Source: an uncultured Patescibacteria group bacterium (GTDB lineage Bacteria; Patescibacteriota; Microgenomatia; UBA1400; PJMF01). From it: a stretch of 64,000 bases of DNA. Both the position numbers and the translations under genes were made by a program. The notes under the pieces were generated by a model, which made no database searches, was not told where the DNA came from, and saw only the letters and a list, made by a program, of their open reading frames with translations. How positions within the stretch are numbered: position 1 is the stretch's first letter; every line of letters starts with the position of its first letter. The stretch covers positions 245,892 through 309,891 of the forward strand of contig CAJQIG010000001.1 of assembly GCA_905478415.1 (NCBI GenBank). Direction: 5' to 3'. Shown piece after piece: positions 23,863-58,025 of this stretch.

Positions 23863-25296
23863 TTACTTTTCTACTATAACAACCGTTAACATACCTGCTT
23901 CAGCATGCTCTAAAATATGACAGTGACTAACCCAAGTCCCTTCATCCAAGGGGACTACTCCTATATCAATAACCTCCTTCGATTTAATCAAAACAGTATC
24001 CCTCAAATATGGTTCATCTACTGGTTGACCATTTCTTGCAAGAACTTTAAAGAATTGTCCATGTAAATGCATAGGATGCAGCCTTGAAGAAACATTTGTA
24101 AAACGTATCACATTAAATTTACCTTTTTTAAGGGTAATTGGGTCGTAATCTGGATATGCCTTACCATTTATTGTCCATTCAATACCATATTTTCCACCTC
24201 TTCTAGCATCTAAAACATACTCGTGATCAATTTTTAGTGCATTAGTAGTACTACTCCAATCTGGGAACATAGCAGCTACAGGAATATTAAAGGACTTTAC
24301 TTCATTACTAACAGCTCCATCTACTAAAATATTAACTAGGTTATTAGTTTCTCTAGTAAAGGTATCACGAATACGATAGGTTTTTTTTTGAGATACTTGA
24401 GGAATTCTAATATCAACATCAACTCTGTTTCCAGGGGCAATTTCAAATCCTTGTACTGCAAACGGTTCTTTTGCAAGCATACCGTCTACTGCAAAGCCTT
24501 TTATATCTAAAGCACCAAAATCAAGTTTGTAAATTCGTGCATTTGAAGTATTAACAAATCTCAACCTCAATCTTTCACCTGCTTTAGCATCAATAGTGTA
24601 ATTCGGCATACCATTAACTGTAATAATATTACCCCAACGGCCATCATGCATTAAATCTCCACCAGTATTAAAACGTGGATCAATTTGTCCACTCTGGTCG
24701 ATTCTCCAATCATCCAACACTATAATTTTATCTTGGTCATATTTAGGCTCAGTAGGGTCTTCTACAACAATAGTTCCATACAAGCCTCTTTCTACCTGCT
24801 CACTCCCTCTAACATGAGGATGGTACCAAAAAGTACCAGCATCTTTAGGAGCAAACTCATAGACAAAACTTTCGCCTGGCTTAATAGGCTCTTGAGTTAC
24901 ACCGGGTACTCCATCCATTGCATTAGGAACCCTTATTCCGTGAAAATGTATTGTCGTCTCTTGTGGCAGATTATTTGTGAAGTTAATTTTAAGAGTATCT
25001 CCTTTTTCAACACGAAGTTCAGGTCCAGGCACTTGCCCATTATAAGTCCACACATCAAGATCATCACCTTCAAAAAAGTTTAATTTTCCTATCTCGGCAG
25101 ATAAAGTAAACTCTTTAACTACCCCTGTAGTTTCAATATCTTCTGGGTATGCTGCCCCAAAGTTTGGCAAATATCCTCCATTTATATTCTGATTAATGAC
25201 TTTTATTACAGTAAAAGATAGTAAAAATAAAGCAATTATCAAAAAACTGTATTTGAAAAATACTTTTATTGAATGTTTTTGACTGCTACCTATCAT
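23863..25296 (-). CDS. Multicopper oxidase (CueO/CopA/laccase family), copy 1
   Basis: All four MCO copper motifs are present: HFHG, YHPH, HPMHLHG and HCHILEHAEAGM. N-terminal signal/TM. Roughly 75% identical to the paralogue at 45705-47132 (estimated by eye). Confidence 0.9.
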   Translation of the reverse strand: MIGSSQKHSIKVFFKYSFLIIALFLLSFTVIKVINQNINGGYLPNFGAAYPEDIETTGVVKEFTLSAEIGKLNFFEGDDLDVWTYNGQVPGPELRVEKGDTLKINFTNNLPQETTIHFHGIRVPNAMDGVPGVTQEPIKPGESFVYEFAPKDAGTFWYHPHVRGSEQVERGLYGTIVVEDPTEPKYDQDKIIVLDDWRIDQSGQIDPRFNTGGDLMHDGRWGNIITVNGMPNYTIDAKAGERLRLRFVNTSNARIYKLDFGALDIKGFAVDGMLAKEPFAVQGFEIAPGNRVDVDIRIPQVSQKKTYRIRDTFTRETNNLVNILVDGAVSNEVKSFNIPVAAMFPDWSSTTNALKIDHEYVLDARRGGKYGIEWTINGKAYPDYDPITLKKGKFNVIRFTNVSSRLHPMHLHGQFFKVLARNGQPVDEPYLRDTVLIKSKEVIDIGVVPLDEGTWVSHCHILEHAEAGMLTVVIVEK

Positions 25297-25311: not shown

Positions 25312-25743
25312 TTATTTTTCAAGTTCCTCTTTTAATAATTTCAGTTCTTTAGTGGTATTATTCAATGCTCTTAATAGTTTACTTTCAACTTCTATGGCAA
25401 TTTTGGAAATTTCTAAATTGCTTGAAAGAGTTAAAGCAGCAGTCGGCTTCATCATACTAATAAAAGTGCTTCCATTTTCTTCGTACAAAATTACATTACA
25501 CGGAAGTAGTAACCCTATCTCTTTTTCAGCTTGTAGTGCTTTATAAGCATTTGGAGGATTACATGCTCCTAGTATCATATACTTAGAATAATCAATATTT
25601 AGCTTTCTTTTCAGTGTTTCTTGAACATCAATTTGAGTAAGAATCCCAAAACCTTCTTGATTTAATGAATCAACTATTGATGCCAAAGCGCTAGAAAAAT
25701 CACCTTGGTATTTTTTTGTTATGTAATATGTTGCTTTTTTCAT
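25312..25743 (-). CDS. DUF302-domain protein (metal-resistance-associated), copy 1
   Basis: EGFGILTQIDVQETLKRKLN...MILGACNPPNAYKAL. Paralogue of 50437-50835. Confidence 0.6.
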   Translation of the reverse strand: MKKATYYITKKYQGDFSSALASIVDSLNQEGFGILTQIDVQETLKRKLNIDYSKYMILGACNPPNAYKALQAEKEIGLLLPCNVILYEENGSTFISMMKPTAALTLSSNLEISKIAIEVESKLLRALNNTTKELKLLKEELEK

Positions 25744-25803: not shown

Positions 25804-25929
25804 TTATCTGAATAGAAATAGTATTTTTTGACTCAAGTGTTGAAATACCTCTCTGGCTGTACAGCTTTTTTGTTGCCAAACATAACTCACTACCCCTTGT
25901 TCAAGAGGTCTCAAAGAAATTTTTTTCAT
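25804..25929 (-). pseudogene. Truncated BlaI/CopY-family repressor remnant (N-terminal 41 codons only)
   Basis: MKKISLRPLEQGVVSYVWQQKSCTAREVFQHLSQ aligns with the N-terminus of the intact BlaI-like protein at 54433-54801 (MKKVSFGPLEQEIMNSIWKKKSSTARDIFQDLSK), then diverges and stops. Confidence 0.6.
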
Positions 25930-25930
25930 A

Positions 25931-25956
25931 CCTACGAGTGTAGGATGTACACTCTC
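25931..25956. promoter_or_regulatory. Palindromic operator candidate CCTACGAGTGTAGGATGTACACTC (CCTAC/GTAGG and GAGTGTA/TACACTC dyads; TACnnnnTGTA cop-box/BlaI-box-like)
   Basis: Lies immediately 5' of the blaI-remnant ATG. The CCTACGAGTGTAGG core is identical to the one at 54803-54816 upstream of the intact blaI-like gene. Confidence 0.5.
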
Positions 25957-26134
25957 AAAAAACAAGAGTTGTATTTTCTCTCTTGCCTAGATCCAGAGTA
26001 CTGATATAATCTGATACAATTTACTACCATAAGTAAATGTTATAACAAAGGCTGCCCACTTTAAGAGGTAGCTTTTTTTGTAACAACTGATATGCCTGCC
26101 AGCAATAAGATTAACATCGTTGAAAGGGTTGTAT

Positions 26135-45704: not shown

Positions 45705-47132
45705 CTATTCAACCTTAATAACTGTCAACATACCTGCTTCAGCATGCTCTAAGACATGACAATGACTGACCCACGTGCCCTCATCGAGCGGAATCACTCC
45801 AATATCAATAACTTCTTTTGATTTTACTAAAACAGTGTCACGAAGATATGGTTCATCTACTGGTTCTCCATTTCTTGATAAAACTTTAAAAAATTGTCCA
45901 TGTAAATGCATTGGGTGTAATCTAGATGAGGCATTTGTGAAACGTATCACAGTAAACTCACCTTTTTTTAATATAATTGGGTCGTAATCTGGGTACGCTT
46001 TGCCATTAATTGTCCATTCAATGCCATATTGACCACCTCTTCTAGCATCAAGCACATACTCTTGGTTAATTTGCAAAGTATTTGTAGCATTCCAATCAGG
46101 AAATATTTGGGCTGTTGGAGTGGTAAACTCTTGAGCTTCAATAACTGTTCCATCAATTAAGATGCGAACCAAGCTATTTGTCTCTCGCGTAAAGATATCC
46201 CTGATAGAATACTGTTTTCTCTGAGATTCTAAAGGAATAGTGATATCAACATCTATTCTATTTCCGGGTGATAACTCAAATCCACTTGCAGAAAACGGTT
46301 CTTTTGAGAGCATGCCATCAACAGCAAAGCCTTTTACATCTAAACCACCAAAATCAAGTTGATACACTCTAGCATTCGATGTATTTACAAATCGCAGTCT
46401 TACTCGCTCTCCCGCCTTAGCATTCAGCGTATAGTCTGACAAACCATTAACGGTAACAATGTTCCCCCAGCGACCATCATGCATTAAGTCATGTCCAGTA
46501 TTAAAGCGTGAATCAATTTGGCCAGTTTGATCAATTCTCCAATCGTCAAGGATGACAACTTTGTCTTGATCATAGGTTGGTTCCTCAGGATCTTCTACAA
46601 CAATGGTTCCATATAACCCTCGTTCCACTTGTTCGCTTCCTCTAACATGTGGGTGGTACCAAAAAGTACCAGCATCTTTAGGAACAAATTCATAAATAAA
46701 TTTTTCACCTGGCTTTATCGGCTCTTGAGTTACTCCAGGAACACCATCCATAGCATTAGGGACTCTGATACCATGAAAATGAATTGTTGTTTCTTGAGGA
46801 AGGTTATTTTCAAAGTTAATTTTAAGCGTATCACCTTTTGAAACTCTGATTTCGGGACCTGGAACTTGTCCATTGTATGTCCAGACATCAATTGGGTTGC
46901 TCGCAAATAAATCTAGCGTTGCTTTTTTAGCAACCAAAGTAAATTCTTTGGTCACTCCGTTAGGTTCAATATCTTCTAGGTATGCGTTTTCATATATAGA
47001 AGAAGAGTTGGTCTGCAGATTTTTTTTCAGATATTTGGTTATAAAAAAAGACAGGAGCAATAAAAAAAAGAGTAAAAATACAAATTTTAATTGGGTACTT
47101 TTCGAATATATTGGGTTATTCTTATCTATCAT
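45705..47132 (-). CDS. Multicopper oxidase (CueO/CopA/laccase family), copy 2
   Basis: HFHG, YHPH, HPMHLHG and HCHVLEHAEAGM copper motifs. Paralogue of 23863-25296. Confidence 0.9.
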   Translation of the reverse strand: MIDKNNPIYSKSTQLKFVFLLFFLLLLSFFITKYLKKNLQTNSSSIYENAYLEDIEPNGVTKEFTLVAKKATLDLFASNPIDVWTYNGQVPGPEIRVSKGDTLKINFENNLPQETTIHFHGIRVPNAMDGVPGVTQEPIKPGEKFIYEFVPKDAGTFWYHPHVRGSEQVERGLYGTIVVEDPEEPTYDQDKVVILDDWRIDQTGQIDSRFNTGHDLMHDGRWGNIVTVNGLSDYTLNAKAGERVRLRFVNTSNARVYQLDFGGLDVKGFAVDGMLSKEPFSASGFELSPGNRIDVDITIPLESQRKQYSIRDIFTRETNSLVRILIDGTVIEAQEFTTPTAQIFPDWNATNTLQINQEYVLDARRGGQYGIEWTINGKAYPDYDPIILKKGEFTVIRFTNASSRLHPMHLHGQFFKVLSRNGEPVDEPYLRDTVLVKSKEVIDIGVIPLDEGTWVSHCHVLEHAEAGMLTVIKVE

Positions 47133-47147
47133 TACTATCTAGATTTG

Positions 47148-47636
47148 CTATTTTTCAAGTTGTTCTTTAAAAAACTTTAGTTCTTTATAGGTGTGGTTAT
47201 ATACAGCTTTTTCACCTTTAAATACACTCACAAAAAACCAGTGGATCACCTTACCAAAAACTGAGTCTGGAAAATCCATAAAAACATTATGATTTAAGTG
47301 TGTGCCATCTTCTTTTTCTTCGAGTGTGAGCAAACCACCTTCTGGAATTCTTATCTTAAAAAATAAAATTGGATATACAGCAACACCTGTCCATACCAAT
47401 ACTTTAGGACGATCTGCATACATTATTTGACCCTTTAAATCTGCATAAAAATTTGCGACTGTCTCTTTCTGATGAAACGTCACTTCGGTGTGCGGTCTAT
47501 TGTCTCTACTATTAAAAACCAAGCCCAAGTGCTCCTCTGGATTTGAAGCAGTCCAGTTCACAGGATCATGTGCATAATCCCAAATTTTTTCTGGTGAATT
47601 TTTAATGGTTATGTTGGTATTTTGTTTTAATAACAT
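47148..47636 (-). CDS. SRPBCC (START/Bet v1-like) superfamily protein
   Basis: Length and pattern KIWDYAHDPVNW...TFHQKETVANFYADLKG are typical of polyketide-cyclase/AHSA1-like folds. Low specificity. Confidence 0.4.
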   Translation of the reverse strand: MLLKQNTNITIKNSPEKIWDYAHDPVNWTASNPEEHLGLVFNSRDNRPHTEVTFHQKETVANFYADLKGQIMYADRPKVLVWTGVAVYPILFFKIRIPEGGLLTLEEKEDGTHLNHNVFMDFPDSVFGKVIHWFFVSVFKGEKAVYNHTYKELKFFKEQLEK

Positions 47637-47642
47637 AGTAAT

Positions 47643-49793
47643 TTAGAGTTTTAGCTCAACCTTTCTAAGTGTCATTGCATTAATAACTACTACCACGCTT
47701 GAGAGACTCATAAGCAACGCTCCCACAGCAGGACTGAGGCGAAACCCAAAAGGAATAAATAGTCCTGCAGCCGCGGGAATAGCAACTAGATTATATCCAA
47801 GAGCCCACCAAAGATTTTGCAACATCTTTGAGTATACTTTTCTTGATAAGAGTATGAGTCTCACAAGGTGTTGTGGATTACTTTGAGTAAGAATAATATC
47901 TCCGGCTTCAACCGCTACATCCGTACCTGCTCCAATAGCAACTCCCACGTCTGCCTGTGTTAAAGCTGGGGCATCATTGACACCATCTCCAGCCATAATG
48001 ACCACATTGCCTTGCTCCTGAAGTTGCTTAATATGCTTATATTTGTCTTCTGGCAGTACTTCTGCAAATACTAGATCTATTTCCAGTTCTTTTGCAACTG
48101 GCTGGGCAGCTGACTTAATATCACCTGTTAACATTGCAACTTTCACTCCAAGTTTATGTAGTTCTTGCACTGCTTGTTTTGATTCTTCTTTGATTTCATC
48201 ACTGAGTGCAATTACTCCCAATATTTCAGAATCACTAGAAATGAAAACAGGAGTTTTACCTTTACTCGCCAATTGATCTAGAGCTTCTTGAGATGTTTTA
48301 GTCCAAACTTTTCTTTCTTCCATTAATCGCTGGTTTCCTAAAAAGTATTCTTTCTTTTCAAAATATCCTTGCATACCTCTGCCTGCTAGATTTTTAACCT
48401 TAGTTGCTTCACTGAAAGTAATCTTTTTCTCTTGTAAGTAATCAAGAATAGACAAACCAATGACATGAGAAGAGTGTGATTCTATAGCTCCAGCAACTTT
48501 GAGTAGTTGGTCTTCTTCTCCAGAAATCACTACCACGTCAGTTACGCCGAACTCTCCTTTTGTCAACGTTCCCGTTTTATCAAAAACTACGTAATCAGTG
48601 CTTTTTACAATCTCAATTTTTCCCATATCTTTAATAAATACTCCATTTTTGACAGCTAGCCTGGTTGCAATAGTTGAAACAGTCGGTATAGCCAAACCCA
48701 AAGCATGAGGACAAGCAATCACTAATACGGTAATTGCTAGTGTTGCAGAAAAAACTAAGGGTTGTCCAATTACTACTGACCAAATAAATAACGATGAAAA
48801 CGATACAGCTATAGCAAAAAATGTAAGCCATTTCGAGGCCTTATCAGCTAATTTTTGAGCAGAAGGTTTTGTCTGCTTAGCTTGAGAAATAAGGCTTTGA
48901 ATTTGACCGATGGTAGATGAATCTCCAACACGTAATAATTTAATTTCAACAGAACCATCAATACTAATTGCCCCAGCTACAACTTCTGAGCCCACATCTT
49001 TCTTAACTGGCTTTGACTCTCCTGTAATATGTGATTCATTAAAACTTCCACTACCTTTAATAATTTCTCCATCAGCTGGAGCTTTTTCCCCTGGTTTAAC
49101 AATAACAATGTCGCCTTCTTTCAGTCTTGAAATCTCAACCTCTGTTACACCTGACTCCGTTTTAAGATGTGCTTCCTTTGGAAGTAATTTTGCTACTTCT
49201 TGCAGTGCATCTCCAGCTGCTGTAGATGATTTTGCTTCTAAAAAATGTCCAAAAAGCAGCACCCAAATAAGAGTAGCTATTTCTAAATAAAATTCAACTT
49301 GAAGAGCCGGTATAAAGGTGGATAGTGCTGAAAATATGTATCCAGAACCAACTCCAAGCGAAACCAGCGTCATCATGCCATATTGTCTTGCCATAATTTC
49401 ATGGCGTGCATGGTCAAAAAAAACCAAGCCAAAATAAAAGATTATAGAAGCAATGCCAAACTCAAGTAATGACCTCAAAGCAAAGTCTGGGACACCTAAA
49501 AATTTTACAGCTGGCTCAGAAAAGATAGCTAGAGGAACCAGGAGAACGGTAACAATATAAAATCTTCTTAAAAATTCATGAGCTGCTTCTGGAGTTGCCA
49601 TCATGCTAGCGTGATCATGTTTGTCATGTCCACCACCCATCTCACTTTTTTTAACTAATTCCATACCACACTTGGAACATTCCCCAGGATGGTCCTGGTG
49701 TATTTCTGGGTGCATGGGACAGGTATAATAATCAGCTTGGTGGTTATGTGCTACATGTTGCATATTTTTCTTACTGTGATGTGAGTGTTTCAT
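47643..49793 (-). CDS. copB: CopB-type copper P1B-3 ATPase (TM6 CPH motif) with a His-rich N-terminus and a CPMHPE...CxxCGM heavy-metal-binding domain
   Basis: MKHSHHSKKNMQHVAHNHQ; YTCPMHPEIHQDHPGECSKCGMEL; TGES; ACPHALGLAIP; DKTGTLT; MLTGD; GDGVNDAPAL. Confidence 0.85.
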   Translation of the reverse strand: MKHSHHSKKNMQHVAHNHQADYYTCPMHPEIHQDHPGECSKCGMELVKKSEMGGGHDKHDHASMMATPEAAHEFLRRFYIVTVLLVPLAIFSEPAVKFLGVPDFALRSLLEFGIASIIFYFGLVFFDHARHEIMARQYGMMTLVSLGVGSGYIFSALSTFIPALQVEFYLEIATLIWVLLFGHFLEAKSSTAAGDALQEVAKLLPKEAHLKTESGVTEVEISRLKEGDIVIVKPGEKAPADGEIIKGSGSFNESHITGESKPVKKDVGSEVVAGAISIDGSVEIKLLRVGDSSTIGQIQSLISQAKQTKPSAQKLADKASKWLTFFAIAVSFSSLFIWSVVIGQPLVFSATLAITVLVIACPHALGLAIPTVSTIATRLAVKNGVFIKDMGKIEIVKSTDYVVFDKTGTLTKGEFGVTDVVVISGEEDQLLKVAGAIESHSSHVIGLSILDYLQEKKITFSEATKVKNLAGRGMQGYFEKKEYFLGNQRLMEERKVWTKTSQEALDQLASKGKTPVFISSDSEILGVIALSDEIKEESKQAVQELHKLGVKVAMLTGDIKSAAQPVAKELEIDLVFAEVLPEDKYKHIKQLQEQGNVVIMAGDGVNDAPALTQADVGVAIGAGTDVAVEAGDIILTQSNPQHLVRLILLSRKVYSKMLQNLWWALGYNLVAIPAAAGLFIPFGFRLSPAVGALLMSLSSVVVVINAMTLRKVELKL

Positions 49794-49841
49794 ACCTTCA
49801 TTATGACGATACTACTGATTGCTGTCATCACCAATGTTTTG

Positions 49842-50423
49842 TTATTTATTGCTTGCTTTTTTTATAAAAAAATATATTCCTGATAATAAAAATGAAATAA
49901 ATGCAAACCAGGTTAATCCTGATTGAATTCCAAACAAATTACCACCCCAACCCATCATTGACATGTCCCTTGGGTAAAAATTATTTGATTCATTATCTCT
50001 GAGTCCCATCATGGAGCCCCCCGTCATCATTCCTTGTGAATAACTGGTTCCACAACCCAAGTACCTACTTCCCATACGTATATGTACTTGTCTTAATGAT
50101 TCTGACCCTTCGCCACCCATCATTCGATCCATAACTTCATGAGCCTCTCCAGGGTGCTGTTGTTCCATCACCGCATCTCCAAGTTGCTCTAGGTCATCTT
50201 CACTTATTTCGTCACAACTTACCTCTTGAATAGTAGTACTACCTTGCTTCTCGAGTATTGCTTGTAAGACAGTTTCAATGGACTCTCCATGTTGAGTTGT
50301 TTCTGTATCACTGCTTTCAACTTCATTTAAACCCATCATTCCCCCTTGAGCTTGAGCTATTTTAGTATGAAAAAACAACAGATTCAAAAAAAGAAAAAAA
50401 ACTACAAATAGAAAACGTTTCAT
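49842..50423 (-). CDS. Methionine-rich secreted or membrane-anchored protein (putative Cu(I)-binding; MMG/MxxM clusters)
   Basis: Signal peptide, then MMGLNEV..MDRMMGGEG..SQGMMTGGSMMGLRD..DMSMMGWGG, and a C-terminal TM. Met-rich motifs as in CopB/PcoB/CusF-type copper binders. Confidence 0.55.
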   Translation of the reverse strand: MKRFLFVVFFLFLNLLFFHTKIAQAQGGMMGLNEVESSDTETTQHGESIETVLQAILEKQGSTTIQEVSCDEISEDDLEQLGDAVMEQQHPGEAHEVMDRMMGGEGSESLRQVHIRMGSRYLGCGTSYSQGMMTGGSMMGLRDNESNNFYPRDMSMMGWGGNLFGIQSGLTWFAFISFLLSGIYFFIKKASNK

Positions 50424-50436
50424 ATCAACCCTCCTG

Positions 50437-50835
50437 TTACTTTGTAGCAGTATTCAAGGCACTTATCAGTTTACTCTCCACATCTTCAGCAATCACAGCA
50501 ACATCCGGATTACTTGATAATGTCAGAGCAACAGAAGGCTTCATTACACTTATAAAAACACGAGTATCTTCTTCATAGACAATTACATTACAAGGAAGAA
50601 GAAGCCCTATCTCTCTTTCAGCTTGCAATGCCTTATATGCATTTGGTGGGTTACATGCACCAAGTATCATGTATTTTGAATAATGAGTATTTAATTTTCT
50701 TTTAAGTGTTTCTTGAACATCAATCTGAGTCAAAATCCCAAAACCTTCTCTATTCAAAGAATCAATTATATCTAACACAGCATCTGAGAACTTTCCTTCA
50801 TACTGTTTTGTGACTGCATATTTTACTGTATTCAT
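50437..50835 (-). CDS. DUF302-domain protein, copy 2
   Basis: Roughly 80% identical to 25312-25743 (estimated by eye). Confidence 0.6.
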   Translation of the reverse strand: MNTVKYAVTKQYEGKFSDAVLDIIDSLNREGFGILTQIDVQETLKRKLNTHYSKYMILGACNPPNAYKALQAEREIGLLLPCNVIVYEEDTRVFISVMKPSVALTLSSNPDVAVIAEDVESKLISALNTATK

Positions 50836-50838
50836 ACG

Positions 50839-51093
50839 TTACCCTCCAATATATTTCTCTGGATCATCTCTAAAATGAGTTTTGCAGTGATCAGAACAAA
50901 AAAAATATGTCGTATCTTTGTATTGCAGACTATATCTGGATTTTTGAGATACATCCATCCCACATACTAAGTCAATGTCACCAACACTGGGCTCAATATG
51001 CATTCCCAGTTTAGACAATTCTTTATCAGTTACTGTTACCATAAGAACTTCCTTAAAATACTTTTTATTGACTTGCTTCTTACATACTAACAA
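50839..51093 (-). CDS. YHS/TRASH-domain metal-binding protein (84 aa)
   Basis: VCGMDVSQKSRYSLQYKDTTYFFCSDHCKTHF: a CGM...FCS..C YHS domain. Confidence 0.7.
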   Translation of the reverse strand: MLVCKKQVNKKYFKEVLMVTVTDKELSKLGMHIEPSVGDIDLVCGMDVSQKSRYSLQYKDTTYFFCSDHCKTHFRDDPEKYIGG

Positions 51094-51126
51094 AGAGCAG
51101 ATGAAGCGAAGATGAAATCTTGCTCT

Positions 51127-51759
51127 TTATCTTGCGATCTGTTCTGGTGAATTATTTTTATTTGTATTAATGTACTTCTGAATCAAAACCTCATCCACAC
51201 TTTCCAACTCCATCATTTTTCCCCATGAAGCAACTACTACATTTGAATCATTTTTTGACCGAGGGGACACTATGACACTTTGTGGATTGTCTTTACCAAT
51301 ATTCCTCAACTTTTCTATTGATTCATCATCAATATTTTTGTATGAAATCCAAATTCCTCCATGTTCTAAACCATGCACAGCTGCTTTATCTTCAATTTCT
51401 TCTTTATATACCCCCCAGTTTTCTGCCAAAGATAGGTGATCGCCTGAAGTTGGAGGATTTGTTTGGTACTCTACAACTGCTTGAGAGGAAATATGCTCTC
51501 TTCCTTCAATCTCAAACTCAGTCACCTTGCCATCCAACGAAACTTCTTTAACCTCTTCTTCAAACTCAATCTGTTTTGGTGTCTTTTTTGTAATCTGTTT
51601 GTAACTAACAACTACTACTAGTAAAACTAGTAGTGTAAGAAAGGTCTTTTTCGTCTTTTGAAATACAGCCGTGCTCTTTTTTTGATTTCTCTTTAATTCC
51701 TTGATTTTTCTTCTTCGCTCATGTTTAGGCAACTGATTCCATTCTTCTGGATATTGCAT
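51127..51759 (-). CDS. DUF3105-family membrane-anchored protein
   Basis: PPTSGDH...HGLEHGGIWISY conserved blocks. Single TM after a basic N-terminus. Confidence 0.5.
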   Translation of the reverse strand: MQYPEEWNQLPKHERRRKIKELKRNQKKSTAVFQKTKKTFLTLLVLLVVVVSYKQITKKTPKQIEFEEEVKEVSLDGKVTEFEIEGREHISSQAVVEYQTNPPTSGDHLSLAENWGVYKEEIEDKAAVHGLEHGGIWISYKNIDDESIEKLRNIGKDNPQSVIVSPRSKNDSNVVVASWGKMMELESVDEVLIQKYINTNKNNSPEQIAR

Positions 51760-51782
51760 AACTGTCCCCTCATTACATTATT

Positions 51783-52532
51783 TTATACTGCCAACGTATT
51801 CAAATTAAAAAACTGAAGTAATTTTATAGAAACTAACTCAACTCTTCCGAGTATTAGTAGTACCCCCATCAAAAGTATCACTAAAGCAGCGAGTATATTT
51901 AGATATTTCCCCACTTTTTTTGTTACTGAAAGTTTCGTAGCTATTTGTTCAAAGAATAGTGCCACTACTAGAAATGGCAGACCTAAACCAACTCCATATG
52001 CTAGTAAAAGACTAACCCCCTTGAATAAACTTTCAGCCTGAGCTGACCAAAAAAGAATGACTGCTAACACAGGCCCTATACATGGTGTCCATGCAAAACC
52101 AAAAGTTAAGCCTACTAGAAACGAGTTCAGTTTTCGAAATCGAGTAGGTGAGAGGGGTAACGAAATTTTTCTTTCACGATATAGAAAAGTTGGTTTAAGT
52201 ACTTTTAACATAAATAAACCCATGAGAATAAACAGAGCCCCACCAGCTTTCTGAATAAATGGTTTATAGACACCCAACATTCTTCCCAAGGTATTGGTTG
52301 TAGCTCCCAATAAGACAAAAACAAATATAAAACCAAGAGTAAAGATAAGTCCATTTAAGAAGATATCTCGTTTGTAGATTACTTTACCCAGGTCGTTCTC
52401 TGTTCTAGAAACGGTGAGCCCTGAAAGGTAGGCAATATATGTTGGAACTAGTGGGAGCAAACAAGAGGCGAAAAAAGTTATAATCCCACCTATAAAAGCA
52501 ATTAAGAGGTTTACTTGTGATCCATCAAACAT
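51783..52532 (-). CDS. ccdA: Cytochrome c biogenesis / thiol-disulfide electron transporter CcdA (DsbD family)
   Basis: SCLLPLVPTYIAYLSG (CxxP..P) in TM1 and a second Cys motif WTPCIGP. Six TM helices. Confidence 0.8.
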   Translation of the reverse strand: MFDGSQVNLLIAFIGGIITFFASCLLPLVPTYIAYLSGLTVSRTENDLGKVIYKRDIFLNGLIFTLGFIFVFVLLGATTNTLGRMLGVYKPFIQKAGGALFILMGLFMLKVLKPTFLYRERKISLPLSPTRFRKLNSFLVGLTFGFAWTPCIGPVLAVILFWSAQAESLFKGVSLLLAYGVGLGLPFLVVALFFEQIATKLSVTKKVGKYLNILAALVILLMGVLLILGRVELVSIKLLQFFNLNTLAV

Positions 52533-52600
52533 ATACTTTTTTTCTAATCAAACTTATAAAAAAGCAGGCAATCTTATAATTGATTGCCTGCTCACACCTC

Positions 52601-53464
52601 TTATAAATATTTTTCGATCGCTTGCTTCACCTGTTCATAAGGTAAGGCTCCTGGAATTAGCTCTTGAACTCCATCATCTGTGACGATAAATGTCCCCGGA
52701 GTTCCTGTGACTCCTGCTGCGCTGCCAGTTGTAAACTGATCTTGGACTCTTTGTGCCATTTCATCACTATCTAAACAGTTCTGAACTGCGGCTTGATCTG
52801 CACCAGCTTCAGCTCCCAGTGCTGCTAAGTCTGATAATGGAAATCCTGTTCCATTTGAACTTGTCCTTTCAAAGTAAAGATCTCCGAACTTCCAAAAGGC
52901 ATCATTACCGGCCAAACTTCCAACACACTCAGCTGCCTCAGCTGCCTTTTGGGCGTTAGCATGAAAATTCAACGGATAATGCCTATAAACCCATGCTATC
53001 TCATCTCCATATTCCTCCAGGATTTGTTGCATTGTTGGGTGAAAACGCTGACAAAATGGACACTCAAAATCTGAGTACTCTACAAGAGTAATCTTTGGAT
53101 TCTTTGCCCCTCTTTTATACTCATTAGCCTCAACAGGTGGTAAATCCCCCAGTTGAGCATCTGTTGGCCCAGAAGGGGCATTAGGCACAGTTGGAGGTTG
53201 TGCAACACCCACTGGACCAGTATTACTGGCACCCTTATTTGACCCATTGGCTAACATTTGATTTTCGGTCCACAATGAACCAATAAAAAAACCACCAATA
53301 GAAAATAAACCAATAATAATGAATAAAACAAAATTACTGTTTATAAAACCCAAAAATGATTGTAAAGAATACGACTGCGATCCTTGCATATGTAACTTCC
53401 TATACTGAATATAACTAATACCTCCTACAACTGTAGGAGGTATTGACAATAATGTCAATTGCAA
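52601..53464 (-). CDS. Membrane-anchored DsbA-like thioredoxin-fold oxidoreductase
   Basis: EYSDFECPFCQRFHP (CxxC) and the cis-Pro region GTPGTFIV. TM anchor, then a Pro/Gly-rich linker. Confidence 0.75.
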   Translation of the reverse strand: MQLTLLSIPPTVVGGISYIQYRKLHMQGSQSYSLQSFLGFINSNFVLFIIIGLFSIGGFFIGSLWTENQMLANGSNKGASNTGPVGVAQPPTVPNAPSGPTDAQLGDLPPVEANEYKRGAKNPKITLVEYSDFECPFCQRFHPTMQQILEEYGDEIAWVYRHYPLNFHANAQKAAEAAECVGSLAGNDAFWKFGDLYFERTSSNGTGFPLSDLAALGAEAGADQAAVQNCLDSDEMAQRVQDQFTTGSAAGVTGTPGTFIVTDDGVQELIPGALPYEQVKQAIEKYL

Positions 53465-53467: not shown

Positions 53468-54436
53468 TTATTCTCGAGGAGAAAAAAGTATGGCAGGAGA
53501 AAAATTAATCTTATCTGATTCATAATGGCTCACACAGTCATTTGTCTGACATTCCCTACTATCACTACAAACTAAGTCGCGAAGATCTGCATTTATTCTT
53601 GAAGGATTAAAAACAAACAATAGAAACATACTAGTAACCGTCACTACACTTACTGTCATTTTCTTCAAATCAATTTTATTTGAGTCAATGCTCCCAGAAA
53701 CTAAGTATTCTATCCTTTGAGTAATTGGTGGTGTAGCAAACTGAAGAGCAACCCCATCTTCAAACGTAAGGCTTAATGCTAAAGATGAGCATAGATGGCT
53801 CTTAGTTCTTTGAGTTTCTATTACAAAAGCATCAGCGGCCAACTCAAATTCCAGTATTAGTTTTTGAACTAATACTTCTATTACTGGAACAAAAAAAAGG
53901 AGTGAACTAATTAACTTTGAGAATAACAATAACCACATGTGGAAATGTCTAACATGATAGGACTCATGGAGTACAACCGCCTCAAGTTGCTTAAAAGAAA
54001 ATGTATCTATCATACGGTTAGATACAATAATTTTTGGCTTAAAAAAACCAATGGTATATGCTGTTGAATCAACTGAATCAATAATTGAAAAAGAAATATA
54101 CTCCAAATCATGCTTTCTAATAATTGAGTTTAATTTTTGAGAAATTGATTTTGATTTCAAGTGAGATCCAAGCTTTCTGTAAGAGAACAGAAAGACTACT
54201 AAACGCCTCAGCATTAAAAGTAAACCCAAAATACCAGTTGCTAAAACAAGCAATGATAAAAGAGTGTAAAAATTAAAATGAACATGTTCCTGAAGATCAC
54301 TCAAAACATTAGTACACACTGTGATTAGAGAGTTCGCTATAAATTGGATGTTAATTTCTAATAAAGTAAATCCTAAAACAAGTATGCTCGCTGATATAAA
54401 AAATATGCTCAGTGGGGTTACTACTCTAAAATTCAT
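53468..54436 (-). CDS. BlaR1/MecR1-like M56 zinc metalloprotease (signal transducer) lacking the penicillin-binding sensor domain; Cys-rich C-terminal tail
   Basis: Four N-terminal TM helices, an HEXXH site (LHESYHVRHFHMW), and C-terminal CSDSRECQTNDC. The start overlaps the blaI-like stop by 4 nt. Confidence 0.7.
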   Translation of the reverse strand: MNFRVVTPLSIFFISASILVLGFTLLEINIQFIANSLITVCTNVLSDLQEHVHFNFYTLLSLLVLATGILGLLLMLRRLVVFLFSYRKLGSHLKSKSISQKLNSIIRKHDLEYISFSIIDSVDSTAYTIGFFKPKIIVSNRMIDTFSFKQLEAVVLHESYHVRHFHMWLLLFSKLISSLLFFVPVIEVLVQKLILEFELAADAFVIETQRTKSHLCSSLALSLTFEDGVALQFATPPITQRIEYLVSGSIDSNKIDLKKMTVSVVTVTSMFLLFVFNPSRINADLRDLVCSDSRECQTNDCVSHYESDKINFSPAILFSPRE

Positions 54437-54801
54437 TTTTTTTGAAGTGTGTCTATCATCTTTTTTCTCGTTTCTTCAGATAATTCATCGATACCATTAA
54501 CAAATGCTAGTAAAGCCTCATCTCCAAACTGACGGACAAAATTGTCCATGCTCTGACTCACAATTTTTTGAATAACATTCTTTTTCTTATCTTTTGATGT
54601 ATACACATGTGTTTTACCTTCTAACATTCTTTCAAGCACTCCTTTATCAACAAGTCTAGTCATTACTGTTTGAACGGTATTATAGGCAATTCGTTTATTT
54701 TTACTTAAATCTTGAAAAATATCTCTAGCTGTTGAACTTTTTTTCTTCCATATAGAGTTCATTATTTCCTGTTCAAGGGGTCCAAAAGAAACTTTTTTCA
54801 T
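54433..54801 (-). CDS. BlaI/MecI/CopY-family winged-helix repressor (no CopY-type C-terminal Cys cluster)
   Basis: N-terminus MKKVSFGPLEQEIMNSIWKKKSSTARDIF...YNTVQTVMTRLVDKGVL matches BlaI. Operator-like palindrome directly 5' of the ATG. Confidence 0.8.
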   Translation of the reverse strand: MKKVSFGPLEQEIMNSIWKKKSSTARDIFQDLSKNKRIAYNTVQTVMTRLVDKGVLERMLEGKTHVYTSKDKKKNVIQKIVSQSMDNFVRQFGDEALLAFVNGIDELSEETRKKMIDTLQKK

Positions 54802-54802
54802 A

Positions 54803-54816
54803 CCTACGAGTGTAGG
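54803..54816. promoter_or_regulatory. Palindromic operator candidate CCTACGAGTGTAGG (contains TACGAGTGTA, a TACAnnTGTA-like cop/Bla box) abutting the blaI-like start
   Basis: Identical core to 25931-25944; 5-bp arms CCTAC/GTAGG. Confidence 0.5.
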
Positions 54817-54847
54817 ACATCAAACTTAAAAAAACAAGCATAGTATC

Positions 54848-55756
54848 TTAGTGATTTTCACAACAACTCTTAGAATTCGATGTGTTTTCTTTATCAGTAC
54901 TTTCACTTTTAACTTGTTTATATATATAAACAACAAATAGTAGTACAAATACAACAAATAACACATTAACAAATGGAACCTGAGCAGTTACATTTGTAAC
55001 ATTCATGGCAACTTGGTTAATTGATTTTGTAATTGATTCATCTCCTGAAGACATAGAGACCTTACCCGTAAGTGTAATTACTATCATTAGAATACCTGAT
55101 AAAAAAAACACAACTGATCCAGCCAAAGTAGAGACAGTAACGTTTCTTTGTTTGTCTAAAAATGTAAATTGGGCTAAAGATTTTCTAAATACTGGATTAC
55201 TCAAGATATTTCTTTTATTTATGAATAAAGATGCTAAATAGAGAGGAAATACCATTCCGAGCACATAACTAAAGCCTATTAATAATGAGAATAGTATTGA
55301 AGGACTAAACGAGCTGAGGGTAATTACCCCAATTAAGACTGGGGCACAACAAGATGATGTAACCCCAGAAACAACTCCTAACATAAAGGTAGATGCTATA
55401 TCTGAGCCATTTTTTCCACCGCTATTCTTTTTAGAGTTTCCAATTTTCAAATTAATCATTGAAAATTTAAAACCAATGAGGGTTAAAAATGAAGCAATAA
55501 TCATAATAAAACCACCAATGAGGTATGTTTTATCATGAAAGTCCATGAAGAACTCAGTTAAAATCTTTGCACCTAACACAATTGGCATCATCACCACAAA
55601 AATACCTAGAGAATAAATAAAAGTCATAAACAAGACTTTTTCTTTCTCTTTGAAAATATTTCCTATATATGCAGGAAATAGATAAGAAATACAACATGGA
55701 GCAAATAATGCCACCATACCTGCAACAAAGGCAGCTATTAAAGATATTTGAATCAT
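54848..55756 (-). CDS. Polytopic membrane protein with vicinal Cys pairs (TM1 FAPCCISYLFP and C-terminal SKSCCENH); DsbD/MerT-like thiol or metal transfer candidate
   Basis: Eight or more TM helices. CC in the first helix and CC in the cytoplasmic tail are reminiscent of MerT Cys pairs. Confidence 0.45.
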   Translation of the reverse strand: MIQISLIAAFVAGMVALFAPCCISYLFPAYIGNIFKEKEKVLFMTFIYSLGIFVVMMPIVLGAKILTEFFMDFHDKTYLIGGFIMIIASFLTLIGFKFSMINLKIGNSKKNSGGKNGSDIASTFMLGVVSGVTSSCCAPVLIGVITLSSFSPSILFSLLIGFSYVLGMVFPLYLASLFINKRNILSNPVFRKSLAQFTFLDKQRNVTVSTLAGSVVFFLSGILMIVITLTGKVSMSSGDESITKSINQVAMNVTNVTAQVPFVNVLFVVFVLLFVVYIYKQVKSESTDKENTSNSKSCCENH

Positions 55757-55808
55757 GTAAGCAAGTTTACATGAATGAAGATGAACAGAAGATGAAAATT
55801 GTTATCTA

Positions 55809-56069
55809 TTACTTTTGAGTAATCATAGTATAAACAGTAGCAAAAGAATAAACTAAAAGAAAGCTTATCACTCCTGCTTCAATCATTCCACTCACTAATC
55901 CAATTACTGTTAAGTTAAAAAACATGTGCCATTTTGACATCTGTTCCGCAGCAGAAACATAGAGCCCCATATTGGCTAATAACCAAATAACCAGCATTAA
56001 CAGTGCTGACCAAACTGCAGCTGCTAAAGCAATTGAGCTGGTGTTAAGTTTGTTTTTTTTGTTCATCAT
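55809..56069 (-). CDS. Small membrane protein (86 aa, 2 TM)
   Basis: Two hydrophobic helices. Within the co-directional array. Confidence 0.4.
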   Translation of the reverse strand: MMNKKNKLNTSSIALAAAVWSALLMLVIWLLANMGLYVSAAEQMSKWHMFFNLTVIGLVSGMIEAGVISFLLVYSFATVYTMITQK

Positions 56070-56089
56070 ACATATATCCTTTTATTAAC

Positions 56090-56551
56090 TTATAGTTTCC
56101 AATTAAAAGAACCTGATTGATTATCAATTCCTTCTATCTCAATAGTAACTGAAGTTACAGTATCTTTCAATTCTGCAAAGACAACCTGACCTGATAAGTG
56201 ATGGCCACCAGCTTCACCTGTCCATTCTTTGACTAAGTACTCATCTCGATTTTGATCATACATTTTAATAATCTTTGTATAATCGTAATCTAGTTCAACC
56301 GAGTGTGTATTCAATTCTAAGTTAAATAGGACCTCTTTATTCGTCTCTAGCTGCACTGGAGTTAACTCTAATGTAACTGCTCCCATTTCCTTTAATTGGG
56401 ATTGTAAACCGGAGTTCTCAGCAACCTTACTGACTACTTCTTGCTCCTTAGCTTTACCCAATACTTTCTTTTCTGTCTTTCCTCCAAATGATTGTATTAC
56501 TATAAAACTTAAAACTAATACCGAAAAAATAAACACTAACTTTCTTTTCAT
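56090..56551 (-). CDS. Secreted or lipoprotein-like protein (153 aa) with a GGHH motif
   Basis: Signal peptide MKRKLVFIFSVLVLSFIVIQS. No Cys. EWTGEAGGHHLSGQ may bind metal. Confidence 0.4.
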   Translation of the reverse strand: MKRKLVFIFSVLVLSFIVIQSFGGKTEKKVLGKAKEQEVVSKVAENSGLQSQLKEMGAVTLELTPVQLETNKEVLFNLELNTHSVELDYDYTKIIKMYDQNRDEYLVKEWTGEAGGHHLSGQVVFAELKDTVTSVTIEIEGIDNQSGSFNWKL

Positions 56552-57075: not shown

Positions 57076-57243
57076 TTAACAACAGCCCTTGGGAGCTTGT
57101 TCGCTCTTCTTTGCTTTCTCATTTTCTGCTTTACCAATTTTCCAAAACAATCTTTTAATAAAATTCTTTGGTTGAGTACTCTCATTTTCTTCACTGGTAG
57201 TTTCTAAAACGTTCATCTTTGGCTTACCACAACAATCACTCAT
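57076..57243 (-). CDS. Unannotated small protein (55 aa) with N-terminal and C-terminal vicinal Cys pairs (MSDCCGKP...KGCC); candidate thiophilic-metal or sulfur carrier
   Basis: Perfect SD TAAGGAGG 4 nt upstream of the ATG at 57243. Stop abuts the next ATG. Below the 60-aa ORF-track cut-off. Hydrophilic body with a Cys doublet at each end. Confidence 0.55.
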   Translation of the reverse strand: MSDCCGKPKMNVLETTSEENESTQPKNFIKRLFWKIGKAENEKAKKSEQAPKGCC

Positions 57244-57252
57244 AAAGCCTCC

Positions 57253-58023: not shown

Positions 58024-58025
58024 AG

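Follow-up and report, generated by a model that had tools for sequence, protein, structure and literature searches.

Gene organization of the locus

The locus contains two genes on the minus strand of the window, by which we mean the whole 64,000-nucleotide stretch of DNA that was analyzed. The first encodes a BlaI/CopY-family repressor and the second a membrane protease of the M56 (BlaR) type, and their reading frames overlap by the 4 bp ATGA (Table 1). A dsbA-like gene follows the pair, with a probable true start at the ATG at 53389 (preceded by AGGAAG, giving 262 aa), and behind it lies a co-directional block of genes for CcdA, DUF3105, YHS, DUF302, Met-rich, P1B-ATPase and multicopper oxidase proteins, congruently with the copper/thiol setting described in the original prediction. 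This island of thiol-oxidoreductase and copper-detoxification genes appears to belong to a conjugative element, its host being a CPR (Patescibacteria/Microgenomates-like) bacterium. No β-lactamase or PBP2a gene was found among the neighbors annotated at about 44.6-60.7 kb, nor do the 15 close homologous loci contain one, and the annotated genes of the same part of the window include no CsoR gene. A two-component system is encoded nearby, at 58621-60650.

Table 1. Genes and sequence features of the locus, by position in the window.
Feature	Position	Strand	Remarks
BlaI/CopY-family winged-helix repressor	54433..54801	-	122 aa, Cys-free
M56 (BlaR-type) membrane Zn-metalloprotease without sensor domain	53468..54436	-	322 aa, four hydrophobic segments
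HESYH zinc-binding motif, residues 157-161	codons 53954..53968	-	from sequence; invariant in alignments A1 and A2
Extracytoplasmic loop 1, residues 28-56	54269..54355	-	C41 codon 54314-54316; H51 and H53 in EHVHFN
Extracytoplasmic C-terminal tail, residues 277-322 (45 aa)	53471..53608	-	in place of the BlaR1 sensor domain
Tail Cys codons	C290 53567-53569; C296 53549-53551; C301 53534-53536	-	C-x5-C-x4-C
Operator O1, CCTACACTCGTAGG	54803-54816	-	inside the blaI promoter
blaI promoter	54803..54837	-	-35 TTGTTT 54832-54837, 17-nt spacer, -10 TACACT 54809-54814
Second promoter and operator O2	53417..53458	-	between M56 stop codon and dsbA-like gene; -35 TTGACA 53453-53458, -10 TACAGT 53430-53435; palindrome 53417-53444
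Membrane-anchored DsbA/thioredoxin-like oxidoreductase, CPFC motif	52601..53389	-	Pfam Thioredoxin_4, DSBA; first gene under O2
Terminator-like hairpin with U-run	52562..52593	-	-24.6 kcal/mol, z -5.7
Co-directional copper/thiol gene block	45705..52532	-	Pfam
CcdA	51783..52532	-	Pfam
DUF3105	51127..51759	-	Pfam
YHS	50839..51093	-	Pfam
DUF302	50437..50835	-	Pfam
Met-rich protein	49842..50423	-	
P1B-ATPase with HMBD	47643..49793	-	Pfam
162-aa protein, no assigned family	47148..47636	-	
Multicopper oxidase	45705..47132	-	Pfam
Third operator O3, CCTACACTCGTAGG	25931-25944	-	promoter region 25804..25965
Truncated blaI remnant, 41 codons	25804..25929	-	beside O3
Second DUF302	25312..25743		downstream of the O3 promoter
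Second multicopper oxidase	23863..25296		downstream of the O3 promoter

The M56 protein has a BlaR1-like protease core and no sensor domain

The 322-aa protein matched the Pfam family Peptidase_M56 (PF05569) with an E-value of 2e-17 and 63.7 bits against a cut-off of 31, over positions 85-294 of the 296 in the profile. In a profile alignment its residues 48-270 lay on residues 90-322 of S. aureus BlaR1 and its active-site residues on BlaR1 His201, His205, Glu242, Asp246 and Arg294. Among 52 aligned sequences H157, E158, H161, E198 and R241 were invariant and D202 was conserved in at least 90%. The gluzincin set, formed by the predicted HEXXH motif and the downstream Glu, Asp and Arg, is complete; in BlaR1 the Asp and the Arg stabilize this active site (PMC9834060). 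By its sequence, the protein carries the whole catalytic apparatus of BlaR1, facing the cytoplasm. An AF2 model built from the 52-sequence alignment had a confident core, whose fold was nearest to the transmembrane and protease module of BlaR1 (best Foldseek matches 8EXS/8EXP/8EXR); structure prediction thus recovered the core but not the outer loop (22-53) or the tail (278-322), which stayed at pLDDT <50. An invariant F233, in the motif HFATSP, fell at most 2 residues from BlaR1 F284 in the profile alignment, which is imprecise in this loop. The BlaR1 autocleavage loop, with S283/F284 and a hydrophobic P1' residue, sits in the active site.

The absence of a penicillin-binding (SxxK) sensor domain, as originally proposed, was borne out. 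Only 45 residues follow the last transmembrane helix and they hold no domain; a Pfam scan of both proteins of the pair returned none besides Penicillinase_R and Peptidase_M56, and the NCBIfam model blaR1_generic scored 34 bits against a cut-off of 400. We did not assign the protein to BlaR1/MecR1, given the lack of a sensor domain, a score far below the NCBIfam cut-off and the lack of a β-lactamase or PBP2a target.

The repressor resembles MecI and is predicted to act at three operators

The 122-aa repressor matched Penicillinase_R (PF03965) with an E-value of 2e-24 and 86.5 bits (cut-off 22.6) and aligned end to end with MecI (1sd6/1okr). Its conserved motif FGDEALLAF puts A99-F100 at the position of the MecI/BlaI scissile bond N101-F102, and alignment to MecI showed that the P1' Phe of this cleavage site is kept in the family. 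The best NCBIfam match was CopY_TcrY (TIGR02698), with a score of 53.4 bits against a cut-off of 121.95, and no member of the family alignment carries the C-terminal CxCx4CxC of CopY; on these two grounds we rejected CopY/TcrY membership. The claim that the CopY Cys site is missing proved an understatement: the repressor of the window has no Cys whatever, which excludes a thiolate sensor of the CopY type.

Operator O1, which reads CCTACGAGTGTAGG on the plus strand and TACACTCGTA on the coding strand, abuts the ATG of blaI and has one mismatch to TACAnnTGTA. The likeness to a cop box noted earlier therefore holds; the box is also conserved, with a second copy before the downstream operon. When the upstream regions of 13 loci were aligned, the blaI -10 box lay within O1 in a CCTACA-NN-TGTAGG palindrome, and in most homologous loci the box is perfect (TACACTTGTA). 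The ATG stands only 7 nt past the -10 box, so the mRNA is probably leaderless. An operator in its own promoter predicts that blaI-M56 is autoregulated. O2 is a perfect TACAGTTGTA box in a 28-bp palindrome that overlaps the -10 box of a promoter with 10/12 matches in a promoter scan. We discarded the idea that this palindrome is a mere terminator, as it has no U-run, shares the operator core and lies between -35 TTGACA and -10 TACAGT; it could serve as operator and terminator both.

All 15 close loci (L001-L015) carry O1 and O2, at fixed positions overlapping the -10 boxes, and in distant CPR loci the operator is present with a 5-nt spacer. Four copies of the pattern CTACN4GTAG were counted in the window, where 0.33 would be expected and none of 100 shuffles had as many, whereas the plain cop-box pattern TACANNTGTA was not enriched (2 against 1.46 expected), so only the extended palindrome is significant. 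A search for degenerate operator copies before the ATPase gene, the oxidase gene or the 54.8-58.5 kb block found none. Taken together, we hold it very probable that the BlaI-like protein represses through these predicted operators. The hairpin between the dsbA-like gene and ccdA is strong and may act as a partial terminator, and its terminator-like form counts against the view that BlaI directly controls the ATPase and oxidase genes of the window.

Conserved cysteines lie in the outer loop and the tail of the protease

The protease had been described as ending in C-x5-C-x4-C. The motif exists, in CSDSRECQTNDC, which spans C290, C296 and C301, but 21 residues follow it, so the protein does not literally end there. 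The tail comes after the last transmembrane helix, which aligned with BlaR1 TM4, and a net charge of -3.5 on the tail side against +4.5 on the cytoplasmic side fits a tail that lies outside. C301 was invariant among the 52 homologues, C290 and C296 were conserved in at least 90%, and a NF(S/T)P motif of the tail is conserved as well. Just as conserved is the outer loop, with an invariant C41 and with H51 and H53 in at least 90% of the sequences; C41 and His51/His53 are, as candidate ligands, as good as the tail. By profile alignment this loop is the counterpart of the C-terminal end of EL1 of BlaR1, just ahead of the signal-transmitting helix. The role of EL1 in BlaR1 has been described, and its displacement opens the protease site (PMC9834060).

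The arrangement of one loop and three tail Cys, with other spacings, also occurs in distant CPR relatives. We counted extracytoplasmic Cys in 167 relatives, taking as loop Cys all those N-terminal to the equivalent of TM2, with which a few of the odd cases are a Cys within TM1; counting by hydropathy segmentation or by profile columns was abandoned because it mis-assigned many shorter relatives without TM1. The total was 4 or 2 in 142 of the 167, with loop and tail numbers of (1,3) in 118 proteins, (1,1) in 20 and (1,2) in a single one. The loss is paired: two tail Cys are gone together and the loop Cys is retained. Of the 12 cases that could be aligned, 8 placed the remaining tail Cys at C290. 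Since the totals are nearly always 4 or 2, disulfide pairs between loop and tail are at least as likely as a metal site, and the even parity favors structural or regulatory disulfides; for a (1,1) pair, a two-coordinate Cu(I) site is just as conceivable. Single-Cys tails always keep a partner for the loop Cys, which suggests that loop and tail act together. Two Bacillales relatives (L034, L046) keep the loop Cys with the tail absent.

Homologous loci link the pair to thiol and copper genes

A profile search returned 40,541 cluster representatives at E ≤ 0.001. In all 15 close loci DsbA-like, DUF3105 and multicopper oxidase/ATPase genes come after the pair. The genes that stand directly behind the DsbA-like gene in each of them are specific to copper (multicopper oxidase, HMBD-ATPase, YHS, Met-rich protein, Csp or CsoR), and conjugation genes usually adjoin. 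One of these loci, L005, has gaps of at most 12 bp from dsbA through the multicopper oxidase gene. The dsbA-like gene adjoins the M56 gene in every close locus and in about 14 of 19 informative distant ones, and with its own operator it is the one target that the close family shares with distant CPR loci and even with Lederbergia. Four loci harbor Cys-tailed relatives beside MgtE-like genes (L021, L028) or MFS genes (L027, L031), where neither copper nor DsbA genes lie closer than 10 kb, so the tail is not copper-specific. A CsoR gene adjoins the ATPase gene in L003, L006 and L007; together with the two-component system of the window, this means that other regulators could sense copper.

As far as their sequences tell, the orthologues of the close family thus keep the Cys triad, have an intact rather than degenerate M56 active site and are all tied to copper/thiol genes. 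From the idea of a metal-responsive BlaR1-BlaI variant, the sensor-less pair, the intact protease and the precedent of PetR/PetP (see below) stand; metal binding by the tail is only a possibility, and the Cys parity fits disulfides.

Proposed mechanism and alternatives

We propose that the pair is a BlaI/BlaR-type proteolytic derepression switch with copper as inducer and the Cys module as input, by either thiol chemistry. This reading is plausible, and taken as a whole we rate its chances at slightly under even. The switch would work like PetR/PetP and control the extracytoplasmic thiol-oxidoreductase and copper-detoxification island. The Cys-free BlaI-like dimer would bind TACA-NN-TGTA palindromes over the -10 boxes of two promoters, that of its own leaderless blaI-M56 transcript and that of the dsbA-like gene, and the genes behind the latter would be reached by read-through or through tight operon structure. 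At a decayed duplicate locus, O3 would drive DUF302 and multicopper oxidase. On the outside, a minimal thiol module made up of the loop Cys and the tail Cys triad would replace the penicillin-binding domain. Copper, or copper-caused thiol damage, would alter the way in which loop and tail are connected: either a Cu(I)-thiolate bridge would form, or the C41-C290 and C296-C301 disulfides would be made, broken or shuffled. The helix behind the loop would then shift and the protease site would open, as happens upon EL1 displacement in BlaR1. Cleavage of BlaI just ahead of the conserved Phe100 would follow and free both promoters. The induced DsbA-like/CcdA pair may finally restore the thiol state of the sensor, giving negative feedback.

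Confidence differs between the steps. Inactivation of BlaI through cleavage by the M56 protease is likely. Copper or copper-caused thiol stress is probably the physiological inducer, though we say so with less assurance, and the assignment of loop and tail Cys as the input site we only narrowly favor. Between direct Cu-thiolate and disulfide chemistry the balance is about even. A more specific version, held tentatively, is that the CPR family has refitted a BlaR1 scaffold with a minimal outer thiol switch, made up of a loop Cys that is tethered to one in the tail and of a second CxnC pair; it would report copper/disulfide stress by proteolysis of the repressor, and the induced DsbA-like protein would reset it.

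The alternative that survives best, possible although unlikely, is a pure extracytoplasmic thiol/disulfide-stress sensor in which C41-C290 tethers the tail to the loop, C296-C301 forms a second disulfide and no metal is bound. Such a switch would respond to the redox state of the disulfides or to how they compete for the DsbA-like/CcdA machinery, and copper would be one indirect cause. The even Cys totals, the joint loss of tail Cys with the loop Cys kept, the alignment of the remaining one with C290, the wide conservation of the operator-bearing DsbA-like gene and the Cys-tailed relatives without copper genes would all suit it. Against it, copper-specific genes directly follow the DsbA-like gene throughout the close family, the sole characterized sensor-less relative responds to copper, and the (1,1) pairs fit Cu(I) equally well.

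Alternatively, the outer loop alone may sense copper with C41, H51 and H53, like the Met53/Met58 loop proposed for PetP, the tail Cys being a structural knot or docking element. We regard this as improbable: the conservation of the loop residues, the correspondence of the loop to BlaR1 EL1 and the PetP loop and the tail-less Bacillales proteins agree with it, but the tail triad is no less conserved than the loop Cys and single-Cys tails always retain its partner. It is more improbable still that sensing does not lie with the protease. The turnover of BlaI would then be constitutive or set by another cue, for example damage to the cell envelope or the kind of cytoplasmic ligand that has been proposed for BlaI of B. 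licheniformis, and copper control would rest on CsoR or two-component systems. The CsoR genes beside the ATPase gene in three loci, the two-component system of the window, the hairpin behind the dsbA-like gene and the lack of defined signals for PvmSR and CenIR argue for it; the lack of a CsoR among the genes annotated between about 44.6 and 60.7 kb of the window, the operators heading the thiol/copper operon in every close locus and the conserved extracytoplasmic Cys and His, which imply an outside input, argue against it. Finally, a CopY-like repressor that itself binds copper and leaves the DNA, with the protease as an accessory, is suggested by the best NCBIfam match, the cop-box type operator and the three N-domain Cys of many homologues, but it can practically be dismissed, as the Cys-free repressor of the window contradicts it and the family lacks CxCx4CxC (53 against a cut-off of 122). 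In close-family homologues that carry these N-domain Cys (C16, C23, C31 in the family alignment), the residues could contribute.

If this refitted BlaR1 thiol switch is real, it would represent an undescribed input chemistry for regulated proteolysis, and a thiol switch widespread in hundreds of CPR lineages (at 50% clustering) that travels with copper-resistance cargo on conjugative elements. It would be the first proposed metal/thiol-stress regulatory circuit in CPR bacteria, and would mean that the copper-resistance cargo of CPR conjugative elements comes with its own regulation. Conceptually the circuit is of moderate value, as a case of signaling by BlaR-type receptors that lack a sensor domain; in practice its value is modest and might lie in a compact copper/thiol biosensor module.

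Comparison with known systems

The output genes invite comparison with ScsABCD (suppressor of copper sensitivity), which combines a DsbD/CcdA-like reductase and a thioredoxin/DsbA-like protein with copper tolerance functions. The likeness is a functional analogy of the output genes only, and we know of no Scs system under BlaI/M56 control. With CopY/TcrY of the Lactobacillales the locus shares the PF03965 fold, the TACAnnTGTA cop box and the association with copper ATPase operons; unlike CopY/TcrY, its repressor has no CxCx4CxC Zn/Cu site and comes with a partner protease that is absent from CopY systems.

BlaR1/BlaI and MecR1/MecI of Staphylococcus and Bacillus have the same M56 fold and HEXXH...E...D...R set, the same topology of a last transmembrane helix leading to an outside C-terminal segment, and an outer loop upstream of the signaling helix. 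Their repressors share the winged helix, the P1' Phe, TACA/TGTA operators over the promoter and an autoregulated gene pair. The tail of 45 aa contrasts with the penicillin-binding sensor domain of about 250 aa in BlaR1/MecR1, the P1 residue is Ala instead of the Asn of MecI/BlaI, and the targets of BlaR1/MecR1, β-lactamase or PBP2a, have no counterpart here. The M. tuberculosis/M. abscessus BlaIR, P. aeruginosa PvmSR and C. difficile CenIR pairs likewise combine a short sensor-less M56 protein with a BlaI-type regulator. The signals of such pairs (PvmSR, CenIR) are undefined or not β-lactams, and no Cys tail or copper/thiol targets have been reported for BlaIR, PvmSR or CenIR, which we compared by description only. 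One review remarks that the BlaR homologues of heterotrophs still await elucidation.

The nearest precedent is PetR/PetP (Slr0240/Slr0241) of Synechocystis sp. PCC 6803. It is a BlaI/BlaR switch that depends on copper and has no sensor domain, and in which PetR degradation needs copper and PetP, both in vivo and in extracts (bioRxiv 10.1101/2020.07.31.226407). Besides PetRP, our literature search found nothing on CPR copper islands or on BlaI/M56 pairs tied to copper resistance. PetP has no sensor domain and PetR none of the CopY Cys residues (10.1101/2020.07.31.226407). Set against it by published description only, the CPR pair is alike in a BlaI/CopY-family regulator without CopY Cys and with a Phe at the BlaI cleavage position, in a downstream, start/stop-overlapping M48/M56 protease gene whose product has four transmembrane helices and no penicillin-binding domain, and in an input thought to lie in a short outer loop ahead of the protease domain. 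Given this precedent, the mechanism proposed here is not new in kind and the idea is less novel than first assumed; what is new is that the input module is built on Cys, that the switch is wired to thiol/copper resistance and that it has spread in CPR bacteria. The PetRP targets are plastocyanin and cytochrome c6 (four genes; petE/petJ) instead of a DsbA-like oxidoreductase and a copper-resistance island, its operator is GACN5GTC instead of a TACAnnTGTA type, and it belongs to cyanobacteria, not to a mobile element of CPR bacteria. The proposed PetP ligands are two loop Met (Met53/Met58), whereas the loop of the CPR protease (28-56) has no Met but C41, H51 and H53, and the three-Cys tail is an addition with respect to PetP. 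Among the very common sensor-less proteases of the BlaR type, PetRP alone has a defined inducer, copper, established experimentally, and its sensing residues are a guess. The CPR family offers a cleaner test case, with a Cys-free repressor, an outside reduced to one loop and a 45-residue tail, four conserved Cys and two His as candidate ligands, and defined operators and targets.

The repressor-protease pair and its neighbours

The genes of the BlaI-like repressor and the M56 protease share an ATGA overlap. Pfam recognized Penicillinase_R in the former (E 2e-24) and, above the gathering score, Peptidase_M56 in the latter (E 2e-17), with no other domain in the protease. NCBIfam BlaR1 models gave the protease 24-34 bits against cut-offs of 400-1200, and CopY_TcrY gave the repressor 53 bits against a cut-off of 122. 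All same-strand neighbours of the pair are thiol or copper genes, and ORFs, Pfam and neighbours together confirm the original prediction of a BlaI-like protein paired with a sensor-less M56 protease in a copper/thiol operon.

Coordinates of the operon and associated features
Feature	Position	Strand	Description
BlaI-like gene	54433..54801	-	122 aa
M56 gene	53468..54436	-	322 aa
Same-strand neighbours		-	DsbA-like thioredoxin, CcdA, DUF3105, YHS, DUF302, Met-rich protein, P1B-ATPase with HMBD, multicopper oxidase
O1	54803-54816		operator at blaI promoter
O2	53421-53440		perfect TACAGTTGTA box in a 28-bp palindrome, between M56 stop codon and dsbA-like gene
Hairpin with U-run	52562-52593	-	between dsbA-like gene and ccdA; -24.6 kcal/mol, z -5.7
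Block upstream of blaI	54848-58517	-	46-bp gap to blaI
Response regulator/histidine kinase pair	58621-60650	+	divergent from the preceding block
O3	25931-25944	-	promoter and operator intact, heads truncated second blaI
blaI remnant	25804..25929	-	41 codons
Second DUF302	25312..25743	-
Second multicopper oxidase	23863..25296	-
Conjugation/T4SS block	26120-35552	+	two T4SS_pilin, PrgI, TraG/VirB4-like ATPase, M23 peptidase, 1402-aa protein
Cys-tailed BlaI/M56 pairs in other loci	L021 and L028 (10690-14157)		adjacent to MgtE-like divalent-cation transporters

Operators and promoters

Alignment of the upstream regions revealed a palindrome abutting the blaI ATG that is common to the window and 12 close loci. 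It is a perfect cop/bla box (CC-TACA-CT-TGTA-GG) in most of them, and the window copy, TACACTCGTA, has one mismatch. Its TACACT serves at once as a good −10 box and as one operator half, with a TTGAAA-type −35 box (TTGTTT in the window) 17 nt upstream. The blaI ATG lies just 7 nt after this −10 box, with no Shine-Dalgarno sequence at a usable distance (window 54799-54837; same position in the close loci L001-L015), which probably makes the blaI transcript leaderless.

The motif CTACN4GTAG has four occurrences in the window where 0.33 would be expected; one site, intragenic, is probably there by chance, and the other three are regulatory. O2 is placed between a TTGACA −35 box and a TACAGT −10 box; this placement shows that the probable start codon of the dsbA-like gene is the ATG at 53389, which has AGGAAG in front of it, rather than the TTG upstream. 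Operator sites occupy exactly these two positions in 15/15 close-family loci, and distant CPR (Patescibacteria/Microgenomates-like) relatives show both sites in this arrangement, with a 5-nt spacer (CTACA-NNN-TGTAG). By this operator evidence, the strongest new result here, regulation of the thiol/copper island by a BlaI-type repressor is well supported.

A Bacillales locus (L034, Lederbergia lenta, 9569-11542) encodes BlaI, a tail-less 282-aa M56 protein and a DsbA-like protein, with one operator site, CTACGTTATGTAG, 14 bp ahead of the dsbA-like gene; CPR are thus not alone in having the BlaI-M56-DsbA triad.

Positions 23863-25965 (−) contain a second, decayed copy of the operon head. The blaI remnant retains about 75% nucleotide identity until similarity ends, and the O3 promoter now reads into the second DUF302 and multicopper oxidase genes. 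Like the intact operon in L003 and L004, this decayed head is oriented divergently from T4SS pilin genes.

Conservation of the predicted cleavage site and the protease core

The repressor aligns end to end with MecI, whose scissile bond N101-F102 corresponds to A99-F100 in the window protein, inside a FG(E/D)EAL(I/L)AF motif conserved across the whole CPR family. The P1′ Phe is reported to be almost invariant in BlaI (PMC9834060) and conserved in all PetR proteins (10.1101/2020.07.31.226407). The CopY C-terminal Cys motif, which the repressor had been said to lack, was found in no member of the family alignment, and the window repressor proved to have no Cys anywhere. C16, C23 and C31 are present in the DNA-binding domain of many close homologues; the window repressor and several others have no Cys in this domain.

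A word-index search returned 54 M56 homologues of 304-342 aa, except for one of 270 aa; those that are named belong to Patescibacteria, Microgenomates, Levybacteria or Nomurabacteria. Alignments (n=32 and n=52) showed H157, E158, H161 (HESYH, residues 157-161), E198, R241, C41 and C301 to be invariant, and D202, C290, C296, C216, H51 and H53 to be at least 90% conserved. In the family profile, residues 48-270 align with 90-322 of S. aureus BlaR1, and conserved residues land on BlaR1 His201, His205, Glu242, Asp246 and Arg294, which are the zinc ligands and stabilizing salt bridge in the cryo-EM structure (PMC9834060). Structural comparison of the AF2 model, which is confident over residues 60-220, ranked the BlaR1 transmembrane and protease structures 8EXS, 8EXP and 8EXR first and ZMPSTE24/Ste24 next.

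The final hydrophobic helix (254-276) is aligned with the one through which BlaR1 passes outward to its sensor domain, and therefore the 45-residue tail stands in the place of the penicillin-binding domain. A topology with the 28-56 loop and the tail outside agrees with the charge distribution across the family (inside, +1.8 for the N-terminus and +4.5 for the segment after TM2; outside, about 0 for the loop and −3.5 for the tail). C41, H51 and H53 lie in the part of the loop that is aligned to the end of EL1 in BlaR1; this BlaR1 element binds the sensor domain and immediately precedes the helix set in motion by induction (PMC9834060).

A DHLC motif with near-invariant, cytoplasmic His214 and Cys216 (residues 214-216, 53789-53797) is restricted to the close family, being absent in distant relatives and in BlaR1; it could form a second, cytoplasmic ligand site.

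Loop and tail cysteines

The C-x5-C-x4-C motif (C290, C296, C301) is present in the tail as predicted; it does not end the protein, which runs 21 residues further. These residues (302-322; 53471-53533, −) hold a conserved HNF(T/S)P..(V)PASFS motif with an N-x-S/T sequon. Distant CPR relatives (about 25-35% identity) have three-Cys tails spaced C-x4-C-x3-C, C-x5-C-x3-C or C-x6-C-x3-C and retain one outer Cys towards the N-terminus; in a few, a single tail Cys accompanies this N-side one.

The sample was widened with the best 150 of 40,541 matches (E <= 0.001) from an exhaustive profile search, and N-side and tail cysteines were counted in 167 non-redundant short-tailed proteins. The combination of one N-side and three tail cysteines accounted for 118 of the 167, and one of each for 20; two on the N-side occurred with three (10) or one (5) in the tail, the surplus Cys usually lying within TM1. 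Just one protein combined one N-side with two tail cysteines, and two had three in the tail and none on the N-side. Since the lone tail Cys matches C290 in 8/12 alignable cases, these counts indicate that two tail cysteines are lost together while the loop Cys keeps one partner. Such parity is expected from disulfide pairs, C41 with C290 and C296 with C301, and makes a disulfide-based tether between loop and tail a serious rival to metal coordination. Three cysteines would be compatible with a trigonal metal site. A two-Cys version could still coordinate Cu(I) linearly, so direct metal binding by the cysteines may be possible.

Distant Cys-tailed pairs also occur with neither DsbA nor copper genes nearby, beside MgtE-like (L021, L028) or MFS (L027, L031) genes. 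The Cys tail is therefore not copper-specific, and this sensor design may serve other outputs.

Context in other loci and the mobile element

Fifteen loci were compared, seven retrieved by exact protein look-up and eight taken from the genome collection. All of them keep the order blaI, M56, dsbA-like, after which come, where contigs reach, DUF3105 and, in varying combinations, multicopper oxidase, YHS, DUF302, Met-rich protein and HMBD-ATPase, sometimes with Csp or CsoR added. In L005 no gap between dsbA and the oxidase exceeds 12 bp, so the BlaI-controlled promoter there drives the copper oxidase directly. In the window, the strong hairpin after the dsbA-like gene may act as a partial terminator, keeping the DsbA-like protein more highly expressed than the genes behind it, and it leaves BlaI control of those genes conjectural. 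L011 has a different hairpin at the matching place (11851-11880; 12-bp stem, no U-run), and the gap itself is absent in most homologues.

In L001, L003, L006 and L007 the operon is bordered by genes for relaxase (Replic_Relax), coupling protein and T4SS pilin. Together with the T4SS block in the window (26.1-35.5 kb), these neighbours point to the island as cargo, apparently of a CPR conjugative element that transports regulated copper-resistance genes.

The block upstream of blaI, possibly involved in sulfur or metal handling, recurs in L011, L026 and L038. Its products are a DsbD_TM-like protein with CCENH at its C-terminus, a 55-aa peptide that has CC at either end (57076..57243), rhodanese-DUF1573 and DUF1573 proteins, and proteins of 86, 153 and 175 aa with no assignment.

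In the genome collection, some contigs that bear the CPR-type operon carry the titles 'uncultured Pseudomonadales' or 'Gammaproteobacteria' (L010-L012, L015, L019-L021, L023-L025, L027, L031, L033). Proteins identical or near-identical to theirs are labelled Patescibacteria or Microgenomates elsewhere; either the titles look wrong or the bins mixed.

Comparison with known systems

A CopY system was rejected for its missing metal site and a score below cut-off, and a BlaR1/MecR1 system because there is neither a sensor domain nor a beta-lactam target. In other sensor-less pairs (among them mycobacterial BlaIR, PvmSR and CenIR) the signals are not known in the literature, and a 2023 review describes BlaR homologues in heterotrophs as still to be elucidated. 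None of the publications turned up by our literature search described the CPR family, a Cys tail or a BlaI/M56 pair at the head of a copper-resistance operon.

The overlapping partner PetP, an M48/M56 BlaR-like protease with no sensor domain, is needed for the copper-dependent degradation of Synechocystis PetR, a regulator of the BlaI/CopY family that lacks the CopY cysteines; two outer-loop Met were suggested as PetP ligands (10.1101/2020.07.31.226407). The mechanism originally proposed, in which metal at the protease tail triggers repressor cleavage, therefore has a precedent in nature and is not new in kind; our results support it in part. From this precedent and the conserved catalytic and cleavage-site residues we strongly infer proteolytic control by the M56 partner. 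In the close family copper is the likely inducer. PetRP is the closest system in its working, and the CPR pair differs from it in ligands, operator and targets.
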